From contig CAZXZC010000004.1 of the NCBI GenBank assembly GCA_964645125.1, positions 1 through 42,600 of the forward strand: 42,600 nucleotides of DNA. Reading direction: 5' to 3'. Every line of letters starts with the position of its first letter. Positions within the stretch are counted from its first letter, which is position 1. Source of the stretch: an uncultured Candidatus Saccharibacteria bacterium (lineage in GTDB: Bacteria > Patescibacteriota > Minisyncoccia > UBA6257 > 2-01-FULL-56-20). Positions 5,850 to 42,600 of the stretch are shown piece after piece. The notes beneath the pieces are model-generated. The model was not told the origin of the DNA, did no database searches, and saw nothing but the letters and a program-made list of their open reading frames with translations. A program made the translations under genes and the position numbers.

Positions 5850-5854
5850 AGGCT

Positions 5855-5940
5855 ACCCACATACTTTGCTGCGGAGAGCGCTCCAAGGCCGCTAGGCCAG
5901 TCCTACTCTCCTTAGTCAAAGTATGTGGGTTTTATTGCAT
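5855..5940. repeat. Conserved-core hairpin element, copy B
   Basis: Stem acccacatactttg / caaagtatgtgggt. The core GAGCGCTCCAAGGCCGCTAGGCCAGTCCTACTC starts at 5876. The element begins 6 nt after the stop codon. Confidence 0.85.
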
Positions 5941-6094
5941 CTAAAGCACACATCCCAAGTCTTACGCTCCATAATGAAATCCTGTGGCTTTTGCGTATGA
6001 AAATTATTTTTAATTAGTAACGCAATGTTATATATGGGAGGGTGGAGAAAGGAAAATGCATTAAAACAAATTTTTCATTTTATATAGTAGCGCA

Positions 6095-29693: not shown

Positions 29694-31037
29694 ATGGAGC
29701 AATCGCGTATGGATAAAATTGTAAGTCTTGCCAAACGGCGTGGGTTTGTGTACCCAGGAAGCGAGATTTATGGCGGACTTGCTAATACCTGGGATTACGG
29801 CCCACTTGGGGTTGAACTTAAAAATAACATCAAGCAGTTGTGGTGGAAGATGTTTGTGCAGCGGCGTGATGACATGGTGGGGCTTGATGCGGCAATACTC
29901 ATGAACCCAAAGGTGTGGGAGGCGAGCGGGCATCTGAGTGAGTTTAGTGACCCTTTAATCGAATGTAAAAAGTGCCACAATCGGTTTCGAGCAGATCATT
30001 TGGGTTTTGTAGATGAAAAAGGAACTGTTATTGCGAATGCAGATATTTCTTGTCCCGAATGTGGCAAAAAAGATTGGGCACTCCCACAGCAGTTTAACCT
30101 GATGCTCCAAACGTATCTTGGCCCTGCGCAAGAAAAGGCGAATGTGGTGTATTTGCGTCCAGAAACGGCGCAGGCAATGTTTGTGGATTTTAAGAGCATT
30201 CTACAAACAAGTCGACGAACCTTGCCGTTTGGTGTAGCTCAGATTGGGAAGGCGTTCCGCAATGAAATTACCCCGGGCAACTTTATTTTCCGTACACGCG
30301 AATTTGAACAAATGGAAATTGAGTATTTTATCCCTACTCCAAAAATAGATGGCGATTGGCAAGAATATTTCGATGCATGGCTCAAGAGTATGCGCGAATG
30401 GATTCGCGCGATTGGGCTAGAGACCGCGCTTACAGATGGCCGCGTTCACGAACTCGATATTCCTGATGGGGAACGAGCGCACTATTCCAAGCGCACCGTG
30501 GATTTTGAGTACGAGTTTCCATTTGGAAAAAAAGAATTATATGGCCTGGCCTACCGCACTGACTTTGATTTGCAAAATCATATGCGCGTCAGTGGGGAAA
30601 GTTTGCACTATACCGATCCACACACGAATGAAACCTATGTACCTCATGTGATTGAGCCATCATTGGGTGTAGAGCGAACATTTTTAGCAGTCCTTTGCGA
30701 GGCATACACAGAGGAGGAAAAACGAGTGGTGTTGAAATTGCCCTTCGACTTGGCTCCGTATAAGGCAGCGGTGTTTCCGCTTTTAGCCAATAAGCCGGAA
30801 TTAGTGGCCAAGGCCAAAGAAGTCTACGATATGCTCAAAGAGCATTACCCTGTGGCATGGGATGATCGGGGCAATATTGGGAAGCGCTATTTTTCTCAAG
30901 ACGAAATTGGTACGCCATTTTGCATTACTGTTGATTTTGACACCCTCGAACAGGGCACTGTGACGGTTCGCAATCGTGACACTATGACCCAGGAACGAGT
31001 TGAGATTTCGAAGTTGGCTCTGTATGTAAAAGCTTAG
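29694..31037 (+). CDS. glyQS: Glycine--tRNA ligase (dimeric class II)
   Basis: Contains RGF.YP.SEIYGG....WDYGPLG and FRNEI.P motifs. Confidence 0.95.
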
Positions 31038-31101
31038 ACATGCTCCTTAAAATCCTTAATTTACAAGCTTTTTAGTTGTTTTTTAAAAGCGTCAGAAATA
31101 C

Positions 31102-31129
31102 TTGACAAAATTTGTAAGTACGCTATACT
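31102..31129 (+). promoter_or_regulatory. Sigma70 promoter TTGACA-16 nt-TATACT
   Basis: Consensus hexamers in the glyQS-mreB spacer. Confidence 0.7.
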
Positions 31130-31135
31130 GCGTGT

Positions 31136-31420
31136 TAGATGCGCTGGGTTATGTGATTCTTCATTGTAATCATGGTTTTTCAATGAGGAATCGCTATGGA
31201 TCATCCGGTTCCGGCGGCGACTTTTATCCGTACCCAGTGCTCATTTCATAATTTTGAACCGATAGGGAGGGATCTTTTTCTATAAAACCCTATCGGATTC
31301 TATACTTCGTTGAAGTCGCTCCCTTTTATTATTTTAACCAAAGGGAGCAATCTCAAAACAATTTTTAACTTTCAAAAGGCCCTAAGCGCATTTCATAGCT
31401 TCTGGCCTTTTTCCTTTTTT
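31136..31420 (+). ncRNA. Standalone ~285-nt highly structured transcript carrying micro-ORF Z
   Basis: Has its own promoter and terminator (AAGGCC..GGCCTT plus TTTTCCTTTTTT at 31376-31420). Four stems of 9-11 bp. Confidence 0.5.
31196..31285 (+). CDS. Candidate 29-aa micro-protein (family member Z)
   Basis: GAGGA, 6 nt, ATG. Product is MDHPVPAATFIRTQCSFHNFEPIGRDLFL. The TQC-x5-EP spacing is identical to ITQCAGEGVEP in the 37581-37979 ORF, with synonymous codon differences. Confidence 0.4.
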   Translation: MDHPVPAATFIRTQCSFHNFEPIGRDLFL

Positions 31421-31431
31421 ATATGGCAAAG

Positions 31432-31460
31432 TTGCCTGGGGCAGTTTTTTCGCCTATCAT
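31432..31460 (+). promoter_or_regulatory. mreB promoter TTGCCT-17 nt-TATCAT
   Basis: The -10 ends 9 nt before the ATG and there is no SD. Confidence 0.55.
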
Positions 31461-31469
31461 GAACCCACT

Positions 31470-32477
31470 ATGCTCTCGCGTAAAATTGGTATTGATTTAG
31501 GAACTGCCAATACGGTGGTGTTTGTACCGGGCCAGGGGTTTATTATCAACGAACCAACCATTGTAGCCTTAAGTAACCCTGACAATAAAGTGCTTGCGGT
31601 GGGTAGCGAAGCAAAAGAAATGATCGGCCGCACCCCAGAAGAAATCGTTGCGTACCGGCCATTAAAAGATGGTGTTATTGCGGATTACTACGTAACCAAG
31701 GCGATGTTGAAATATTTTATTTCCAAAGCTTCGGCATGGTATAACGTGCTTGGACCTGAGGTGATTATTTCGGTTCCGGCTGGCATTACCCCCACTGAAC
31801 GCCGCGCGGTGATAAACGCCGCGCGCGAAGCAGGCGCGCGGCAGGCATATTTGGTGCGCGAACCGGTTTTGGCGGCATTGGGCGCCGGCATTCCTATTAA
31901 TGCGCGCAGCGGCAATATGATCATTAACATTGGCGGTGGTACCTGCGAAGTAGCCGTTATTGCACTCGGCAACATTGTGGCTTCATTAAGCTTGCGTGTT
32001 GCAGGGAATAAATTCGACCAGGCGGTAGCTGAGTATGTGAAGAAAAAATATTCGCTGGCGATTGGTGATCAAACAGCTGAAGCGGTAAAAATTACGATTG
32101 GCTCGGCTATGACCACCAAAGAGAAGATGGAGTTTCAACTGCGCGGTCGCGACTTAGTAACAGGACTTCCAAAAGATATTGTGGTTAACAGCAACGAAAT
32201 GGCTGAGGCGTTAAATGGGTTACTTACCGATATTACCGCTTCAGTACAAAGTGTGTTTAATAACACACCGCCGGAGTTGGTAGCTGATATCATGGAGAAG
32301 GGAATCATTCTTTCAGGTGGAAGTGCGCAACTTCATAATTTGCCAGAGTTTTTCCGCCGCTTTCTAGGAGTGCAAACTTATCTGGCGGAAGATCCACTAT
32401 TTTGCGTGGCAAAGGGAACCGGTCTCATTTTAAGTCATTTGGACGTGTACAAACGAACGTTGCTAAACAAAAGATAA
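31470..32477 (+). CDS. mreB: Rod shape-determining protein MreB
   Basis: Contains IDLGTANT, actin-fold phosphate motifs and GGGT.E.AV. Confidence 0.96.
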   Translation: MLSRKIGIDLGTANTVVFVPGQGFIINEPTIVALSNPDNKVLAVGSEAKEMIGRTPEEIVAYRPLKDGVIADYYVTKAMLKYFISKASAWYNVLGPEVIISVPAGITPTERRAVINAAREAGARQAYLVREPVLAALGAGIPINARSGNMIINIGGGTCEVAVIALGNIVASLSLRVAGNKFDQAVAEYVKKKYSLAIGDQTAEAVKITIGSAMTTKEKMEFQLRGRDLVTGLPKDIVVNSNEMAEALNGLLTDITASVQSVFNNTPPELVADIMEKGIILSGGSAQLHNLPEFFRRFLGVQTYLAEDPLFCVAKGTGLILSHLDVYKRTLLNKR

Positions 32478-37493: not shown

Positions 37494-37580
37494 GGGAAAA
37501 TAAAAAGTGCCGTGAAATTGGCAGTTGTTATAGTGTACCGCACTTCTTGCCGATATGCAAAGCTTATGGTATGGTGTTTT

Positions 37581-37979
37581 TTAGCTTCTTTCACGCGTGA
37601 AATCTGCGCGATTCACTAAACGCTTACCCTTGCAAAAACTACGAGGTGTACATGCAGCAAACGCAACCATCACCGTCTCGGCGGGGTACTTACCCCGCAT
37701 TAACCACATCGGCAACACAAACATGTATTCCGGGCGAGATCGGGATTGAAAAGCCTCGCTGTCCTTGTCAGAACAAACGGCTTCCGCGCAACCCCAACAA
37801 ACCATGCCCGGGCTGTGGCCAGAAACCAAAGCCCGAAAAACCGGTAATGCATTGTAACGGCTCTGATCAAATTGGGCCGTTACACTCCGATAGGGTTCGA
37901 CTCCTTCACCTGCACATTGGGTGATTCCGGCGTTTCCTTTCACAAAAACCAAAGCAGCCCTTACCAGGCTGCTTTTCAC
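37581..37979 (-). CDS. Candidate 132-aa Cys-rich protein (family member Y-minus)
   Basis: GTG start with no SD. The N-terminus MKSSLVRAALVFVKGNAGITQCAGEGVEPYRSV is colinear with micro-protein X, with synonymous codon differences. It overlaps an antisense ORF. Confidence 0.4.
   Translation of the reverse strand: MKSSLVRAALVFVKGNAGITQCAGEGVEPYRSVTAQFDQSRYNALPVFRALVSGHSPGMVCWGCAEAVCSDKDSEAFQSRSRPEYMFVLPMWLMRGKYPAETVMVAFAACTPRSFCKGKRLVNRADFTRERS
37652..37924 (+). CDS. Candidate 90-aa Cys/Pro/Lys-rich protein (family member Y-plus), antisense to 37581-37979
   Basis: GAGG, 5 nt, ATG. TYPA..TQTCIPGEIG resembles X (KYPA..SQCPGESG). Contains CPC-x13-CPGC. A terminator lies 29 nt downstream. Confidence 0.35.
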   Translation: MQQTQPSPSRRGTYPALTTSATQTCIPGEIGIEKPRCPCQNKRLPRNPNKPCPGCGQKPKPEKPVMHCNGSDQIGPLHSDRVRLLHLHIG

Positions 37980-37986
37980 TTTTTAT
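37953..37986. terminator. Bidirectional terminator-like hairpin
   Basis: AGCAGCC-7 nt-GGCTGCT, followed by TTTCACTTTTT on the + strand and TTGGTTTTTGTG on the minus strand. Confidence 0.6.
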
Positions 37987-38039
37987 CAGTACTACCAGAG
38001 ATTCCTCGGCAAGCTTCGCAATAGCAGAGGGATTTTTTT

Positions 38040-38104
38040 CTATTGACCATTGGCTTGTCCTGAGCTTGTCGAAGGGCTAAACCAAACCCTATTGGCTCTA
38101 TTTT
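38040..38104. repeat. CTATTGGC-word repeat (family 1)
   Basis: Contains ctattgaccattggc ... ggctaaaccaaaccctattggctctatttt. Confidence 0.7.
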
Positions 38105-42464: not shown

Positions 42465-42493
42465 TGCGGGATCGTCTAATGGTAGGACTCCGC
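42465..42493 (+). pseudogene. Duplicated 5' half of tRNA-Gln (29 nt identical to 42529-42557)
   Basis: tgcgggatcgtctaatggtaggactccgc is repeated exactly. No anticodon loop, T-arm or 3' acceptor strand follows. Confidence 0.8.
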
Positions 42494-42528
42494 TGTTTTT
42501 ATAAATTGGAAATATTAGTTTCCACCGC

Positions 42529-42599
42529 TGCGGGATCGTCTAATGGTAGGACTCCGCCCTTTGGAGGCGGCTATCTTGGTTCGAATCCAGGTCCCGCAG
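42529..42599 (+). tRNA. tRNA-Gln (anticodon UUG)
   Basis: Acceptor TGCGGGA/TCCCGCA (U1-A72), D-arm GTCT/GGAC, anticodon stem CCGCC/GGCGG with loop CTTTGGA, T-arm CTTGG-TTCGAAT-CCAGG, discriminator G. Confidence 0.9.
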
Positions 42600-42600
42600 C

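Follow-up and report, generated by a model that had tools for sequence, protein, structure and literature searches.

The class-II glycyl-tRNA synthetase gene (glyRS) and mreB are separated, in the 42.6-kb stretch of DNA that we analysed (the window), by a 432-nt spacer (31038-31469) that houses a hairpin-rich unit, and the question raised by this locus is whether the unit acts as an RNA, encodes a very small protein, serves as a leader for mreB, or is filler. To the 3' side of mreB lie holB, frr and a gene for an RseP-like protease. The best MreB matches among GTDB genomes were metagenome-assembled genomes labelled Parcubacteria, Paceibacterota or Patescibacteria and, because of these labels, the window evidently is a Parcubacteria/Paceibacterota contig of the Candidate Phyla Radiation (CPR). 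The genomes of CPR organisms are tiny, these bacteria cannot be cultured by themselves, and little is known of their gene regulation; to our knowledge, their sRNAs are essentially uncharacterised. If transcribed as predicted, the unit would join a very short list of candidate regulatory RNAs that have been pinpointed in CPR bacteria, and current understanding is unchanged unless a function emerges.

We sought relatives of the locus in GTDB genomes, JGI metagenomes and a collection of 5.8 billion proteins, followed by contig look-up, and compared 177 loci, which are designated by L numbers. The clade that includes the window proved to be small, with four MreB variants in total across the 3 sources. 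Its members are L001 (MreB 92% and GlyRS 83% identical to the window), the group of L002, L163, L168 and L176 (MreB 91% identical), and L173 (MreB 88% identical), which appears to be the outgroup, as judged from pairwise identities instead of a tree. When we looked in the same 3 sources for non-identical close copies of the window-type unit, only L081 and L082 were found, 2 Logan contigs that are identical to the window type; the window-type body is therefore a singleton, with no variation among its copies. In farther relatives, murA (EPSP-synthase family) sits between glyRS and mreB.

The features of the locus are collected in Table 1. From promoter start to terminator, the unit would specify an RNA of ~285 nt, extending from ~31137 to 31420. 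All of the coordinates given in the initial annotation of this DNA, for the promoter, stems, GAGGA motif, open reading frame, hairpins, terminator and mreB promoter, proved to be right when we read the sequence. The predicted promoter P1 matches the consensus at 11 of 12 positions; it is the best promoter-like site of the region and the sole site of this quality in the window. However, since chance alone would be expected to give about one match of this kind per 42 kb, P1 needs comparative support, and it is through conservation in relatives, not through match score alone, that this putative promoter is credible. The terminator-like hairpin was missed by a consensus terminator scan, owing to an interrupted stem and a loop beyond the scan's loop limit.

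Table 1. Coordinates of features in the glyRS-mreB region, in related loci and elsewhere in the window
Feature	Position	Strand	Description
glyRS	29694-31037		class-II glycyl-tRNA synthetase gene; 5' neighbour of spacer
Promoter P1 (predicted)	31102-31129	+	-35 TTGACA 31102-31107, 16-nt spacer, -10 TATACT 31124-31129
Predicted transcript start	31137-31142	+	AGATGC, 7 nt after -10 box
5' three-way-junction domain	31141-31240	+	closed by GCGCUGGGU/ACCCAGUGC; minimum-free-energy fold
Outer stem	31141-31149/31232-31240	+	GCGCTGGGT/ACCCAGTGC; 9 bp, one G-U
Inner hairpin	31155-31165/31182-31192	+	GATTCTTCATT/AATGAGGAATC; extends to 14 bp, 31153-31166/31181-31194
Third junction helix	31195-31232	+	UAUGGAU/AUCCGUA; also pairs the ATG of the 29-codon ORF
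29-codon ORF	31196-31285	+	MDHPVPAATFIRTQCSFHNFEPIGRDLFL; 29 aa; from ORF list
Hairpin	31259-31267/31288-31296	+	CCGATAGGG/CCCTATCGG; encloses stop codon TAA 31283-31285
Two hairpins	31304-31348	+	CUUCG/UGAAG 31304-31316; 9-bp stem GCUCCCUUU/AAAGGGAGC 31318-31348
Intrinsic-terminator-like hairpin	31374-31411	+	AAAAGGCC...GGCCUUUU, then UCCUUUUUU to 31420
Promoter P2 of mreB (predicted)	31432-31460	+	TTGCCT 31432, 17 nt, TATCAT, 9 nt before ATG 31470
mreB	31470-32477		3' neighbour of spacer
Sister-lineage unit	L002 2632-2945; L163 2126-2455; L168 772-1097		~300 nt
Slot contents	L008 2295-2820; L011 2283-2905		unrelated small ORFs with own consensus promoters
Slot contents	L021 2730-2860; L057 2710-2850		17-20-bp long inverted repeats
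Slot contents	L129 1600-1960		ORF-less G+C-rich sequence
AGCCAATAGGGT/CTATTGGCCATTGGCTAAACCCT sites	7540, 9418, 12472, 12546, 13408, 17081, 17175, 19570, 32481, 33483		second dispersed intergenic motif
Intact tRNA-Gln gene	42529-42600		at contig end

Folding reproduced the helices of the initial annotation, with the inner 11-bp hairpin extended to 14 bp. We observed that the segment 31137-31245 folds with a z score of -4.3 and that the 14-bp hairpin (31153-31194) has a dG of -18.6 kcal/mol and a z of -5.1; the motif GAGGA (31185-31189) is located within the 3' arm of this hairpin, 6 nt to the 5' side of ATG 31196. The third junction helix is present in the minimum-free-energy folds, and the centroid structure retains part of it only. 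Farther along the unit, the hairpin at 31259-31296 (CCGAUAGGG.../...CCCUAUCGG) has a dG of -17.0 (z -3.2), the 2 hairpins at 31304-31348 have a dG of -15.9 (z -4.2), and the terminator-like hairpin, taken with its U tract (31374-31420), has a dG of -15.3 (z -3.4). There is also a possible pairing of the 5' and 3' parts of the unit, AGAU with AUCU 31349-31352. Compared with shuffled sequences, the whole unit gave a z of -5.8 and the whole spacer a z of -6.8, versus ~0 for coding controls (n=8). Folding of the minus strand is nearly as strong (z -5.5 and -5.0), so that the fold alone has no power to name the transcribed strand; 2 other spacers of the window, 1610-1976 and 5850-6094, are equally structured.

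A near-consensus promoter was found at the position of P1, after glyRS, in L001, L002, L163 and L168, whose spacers are 400-470 nt in length and whose P1 counterparts sit just past the glyRS stop codon or overlap it. In every P1-bearing relative the sequence AGAT[AG]C occurs 6-7 nt past the -10 box, and it occurs so nowhere else in the 177 loci; this start sequence is AGATAC in the relatives and AGATGC in the window. (The possibility that a leaderless mini-ORF begins the transcript was considered and rejected: the ATG at 31139 opens 5 codons only, and the relatives have AGATAC, not ATG.) The putative mreB promoter P2 is a 9/12 consensus match of the leaderless type, with no Shine-Dalgarno (SD) sequence ahead of mreB, and it belongs to a block, GTTGCC...TTTTT...TATCAT...AC.ATG, that is kept in the same 4 relatives in the form GTTGCC-N17-TATCAT-N9-10-ATG. 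Four features are thus common to these loci: a P1-like promoter, the AGATAC start, a G+C-rich hairpin with a U tract, and P2, with the hairpin at the terminator position before the mreB promoter in both the L001 and L002 types.

Four-fold degenerate sites compared among the window, L001 and L002 show 0.26-0.34 identity and are saturated. Retention of the 2 predicted promoters over such divergence implies that P1 and P2 are both under selection, and supports the view that the upstream unit is separate and that mreB has a leaderless promoter of its own. In L001, where a clean glyRS terminator stands before P1, the unit appears to be independent of glyRS for that reason. By these observations, the standalone unit of the initial annotation, bounded by a TTGACA-16-TATACT promoter and its own terminator and set apart from a leaderless-type mreB promoter, was supported, since P1, the start, the terminator and P2 are retained in the nearest relatives. 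The further expectation, that the region would be conserved wherever glyRS and mreB remain adjacent, held for the promoter and architecture, and failed for the transcript body and in L173, which has 97 nt only between glyRS and mreB, with no P1 and no unit. The unit is therefore dispensable.

Neither BLAST nor nhmmer nor covariance models could align the ~300-nt body, which lies between P1 and the terminator, across the window, L001 and L002 types. Searches of the 177 loci and the window with blastn (word size 7) and nhmmer, using the window unit, the L001 unit or an L002-type profile, recovered self or same-lineage matches only, and MAFFT/RNAalifold applied to the 5' domains of the lineages gave no common fold. 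A covariance model of the L002-type hairpin 1 (R1) did not find the counterpart units, and a model of the window 5' domain (R2) detected no counterpart in relatives. The window, L001 and L002 bodies may not constitute one RNA family.

Within the sister lineage represented by L002, L163 and L168, the situation is clearer. The 3 units are 78-91% identical to each other, while four-fold sites between the same loci are 0.49-0.56 identical. Alongside an identity of 81%, six compensatory base pairs were identified, 5 of them in the first long stem and 1 in another helix; the terminator stem is invariant and its loop varies; the single-stranded segments are also constrained; and single-nucleotide indels shift every ORF. 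Because the body is kept above the four-fold rate, with compensatory pairs and frame-breaking indels, the sister-lineage unit is, by all signs in its sequence, a selected non-coding RNA, and for this reason there would be at least one lineage in which this class of locus works as RNA. This unit resembles that of the window in its site, P1, AGAUAC-type start, long 5' hairpin domain, terminator and P2, but its body sequence and predicted helices cannot be aligned with the window unit. As a novel structured RNA it is better supported than the window's own copy, whose function as RNA is suggested only by where it lies and how it is built.

The site upstream of mreB is a hypervariable hotspot for lineage-specific cargo. 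We observed murA within 150 nt of mreB in 75 of the 177 loci, and 300-2800 nt between the 2 genes in 39 others of this set, with MreB at least 80% identical in nearly all of those listed; the contents of several such slots are given in Table 1. A decayed murA or cargo ORF in the window is disfavoured because the unit folds far better than its shuffles while coding DNA scores ~0; in addition, the spacers returned nothing significant when searched by tblastn with murA and 21 slot ORFs.

Searches for known RNAs were negative throughout. Rfam 15 at the gathering threshold reported one tRNA only in the whole window, and ARAGORN found tRNA-Gln only; with Rfam at E up to 10, the best match in 30950-31550 was SpF22, on the minus strand, with 26.3 bits compared with a gathering score of 55. 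The L163 and L001 units, searched at E up to 10, gave weak, chance-level matches, none of them near a gathering score, and the loci of 40 relatives, including the slots, gave no match at the gathering threshold. The candidate 6S RNA was rejected, with no Rfam 6S match at E up to 10 and with a fold that is a series of hairpins, in contrast to 6S RNA, a long rod with a bubble at its centre and with its 5' and 3' ends paired.

We propose that the spacer carries a stand-alone, lineage-specific, structured non-coding RNA gene of ~285 nt that acts as RNA and not through a peptide, a reading to which we assign about an even chance of being correct. According to this proposal, a sigma-70-type promoter, P1, would start the RNA at ~31137 with AGAUGC; the RNA would fold into the 5' three-way junction and 3 further hairpins; and it would end at the intrinsic terminator (31374-31420), which could also shield the leaderless P2 from upstream transcription. 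The unit would work as RNA rather than via the 29-aa ORF, perhaps as a trans-acting regulator or a protein-binding RNA, and it would be one item of lineage-specific cargo in a variable slot among related Paceibacteria, having in common with the units of its nearest relatives the promoter and the first six nucleotides only. A predicted promoter and a predicted terminator of its own, by which a stand-alone sRNA gene is recognized, are both present. Like generic intergenic sRNA genes, the unit has a sigma-70 promoter and a Rho-independent terminator, strong structure, a narrow range and fast turnover; it differs from them in lying outside Rfam and in having a CPR host. It is plausible, then, that the unit, although outside every Rfam family, is in kind an ordinary intergenic sRNA gene candidate.

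The explanation that competes best with a stand-alone RNA gene is that the RNA has no function. The unit would then be hairpin-rich filler or insulator DNA, occupying a slot left by loss of murA, its hairpins would do no more than terminate transcription from glyRS or P1, and P1 itself would be a relic or an orphan cargo promoter. The high variability of the slot in relatives, which hold unrelated ORFs, long inverted repeats or nothing, is what such DNA would lead one to expect, as are the lack of a unit in L173, the failure of the body to be kept between lineages, and the existence of equally structured intergenic regions elsewhere in the window. Yet P1 and the start sequence are kept across saturated divergence, the sister-lineage unit is under purifying selection that includes its single-stranded segments, and 4 stable hairpins plus a terminator exceed the needs of insulation. 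We consider filler DNA to be rather unlikely.

The stand-alone RNA gene has a broader form, which we offer as a speculation that will probably not hold. In this Paceibacteria clade, a conserved promoter and AGAU(A/G)C start would drive RNAs of ~300 nt whose bodies are replaced between sister lineages and constrained within a lineage, all in a highly variable cargo slot that immediately precedes a leaderless mreB. RNAs of this kind would form a new class in the CPR, fast in evolution and either regulatory or protein-binding. If true, such a class might have a tie to cell-envelope or host-interaction functions.

The initial annotation had interpreted the unit as a dual-function RNA, or as the mRNA of a 29-aa micro-protein, in which the 14-bp hairpin, together with the junction, would gate the SD sequence and start codon. 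The arrangement of the sequence is suggestive in this respect: GAGGA is located 6 nt before ATG 31196 inside a stable stem, the ATG itself is paired, and a 31-codon ORF in L001 also begins inside that locus's own 5' domain. Well-known dual-function sRNAs, such as SgrS/SgrT, RNAIII/delta-haemolysin and SR1/SR1P, likewise combine a structured RNA with a short ORF after an SD-like motif. In those systems, however, the small ORF is conserved and translated, whereas the ORF considered here is found in none of the relatives, and this genome seldom initiates translation from an SD sequence. When counterparts of the micro-ORF were sought in L001, L002, L163 and L168, only unrelated or frame-shifted ORFs were found: no homologue of the peptide is present in L001, L002 or L163, and within the L002 lineage the ORFs are frame-shifted with respect to each other. 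The claim of a conserved peptide is not upheld by these results. A Pfam search of the 29-aa peptide gave no match, and the peptide has no transmembrane-like stretch and is not hydrophobic or otherwise distinctive.

Two other supports for a translated micro-ORF were weakened on inspection. First, the peptide had been described as family-like on account of a T-Q-C-x5-E-P pattern in common with ORF 37581-37979 (minus strand). We compared the peptide with the six-frame translation of the window and found 143 places with at least 5 of 10 residues in agreement, self-matches included; shuffled peptides gave 82-224 such places, with a mean of ~130. The likeness is at chance level. Moreover, the comparator ORF has no Pfam match and looks non-coding; it overlies a G+C-rich, non-coding-looking stretch with a tRNA-like T-arm on the other strand. 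Second, the weight placed upon SD sequestration is not supported, since the genome hardly uses SD sequences. An SD-like core (-4 to -12) is present at 4 of the 41 gene starts of the window, versus 5.7% at random positions, and a TANNNT box that ends 5-11 nt ahead of the start is present at 11 of the 41, versus 11% at random, which suggests that many genes, mreB included, are leaderless. A few genes of the window do bear SD-like motifs, but in such a genome the buried GAGGA, at -11 to -7 of ATG 31196, is weak evidence of gated translation. In summary, ORF 31196-31285 is probably not a gene, and we regard the gated micro-protein as improbable.

The stand-alone RNA gene must also be weighed against a long, regulated leader of mreB, in which transcripts from P1 would conditionally pass the terminator, in the manner of a riboswitch or attenuator, and supplement expression from P2. 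The order of promoter, structured RNA, terminator and gene is that of a classical attenuator, and the 5' three-way junction resembles many aptamers. Unlike known riboswitch and attenuator leaders, however, this region has a conserved leaderless promoter intervening between terminator and ATG, and it has no aptamer-like core common to the lineages and no match to an Rfam family, even at E up to 10. Also, no alternative pairing that would compete with the terminator was seen on reading the sequence. A leader of this kind therefore seems to us a poor prospect.

The type I toxin mRNAs hok, tisB and aapA1 have a compact fold that buries the SD sequence and start codon, and their 5' and 3' ends interact; the window unit is similar in its buried SD and start and in its possible 5'-3' interaction, but differs in having no hydrophobic toxin peptide, convincing antisense gene or multiple copies. 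It is very improbable that the unit is what remains of a small selfish element, be it a miniature inverted-repeat insertion or a module like a type I toxin-antitoxin system: the unit's highly structured RNA, the weak promoter-like sites on the minus strand, and the long inverted repeats in the same slot of L021 and L057 are offset by a peptide that is not hydrophobic, by the quality (9-10/12) and poor placement of those minus-strand sites, and by the results for which a dispersed repeat or mobile element was rejected in general, namely no second copy in the window or the compared loci and no match in the phage or plasmid collections.

Several minor observations were made in the course of this work. 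By eye, there is a weak resemblance between segments of the RNA and the 5' end of mreB. The 611-nt gap between 2 ABC-transporter genes at 37494-38104, which holds the minus-strand ORF 37581-37979 mentioned above, contains on its plus strand, at ~37893-37920, the tRNA-like T-arm and acceptor sequence GATAGGGTTCGACTCCTTCACCTGCACA; a very relaxed threshold was needed for ARAGORN to report a 'permuted tmRNA' in this gap, and Rfam reported nothing at E up to 1. The gap may harbor a divergent tmRNA-like or tRNA-derived RNA gene.

The sequence GAGCGCTCCAAGGCCGCTAGGCCAGTCTTACGC, ~33-51 nt in length, occurs in six copies at gene ends (1648, 5876, 11367, 14361, 20318 and 39895); the copies are often flanked by A+T-rich inverted arms, and their spacers fold as strongly as the unit. 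This element looks like a REP-like or terminator-like family of dispersed hairpins. A second dispersed intergenic motif, AGCCAATAGGGT/CTATTGGCCATTGGCTAAACCCT, is found in both orientations near gene boundaries. Finally, the 5' half of tRNA-Gln is duplicated at 42465-42498, with a run of T residues after it, and this copy precedes the intact tRNA-Gln gene by 64 nt.
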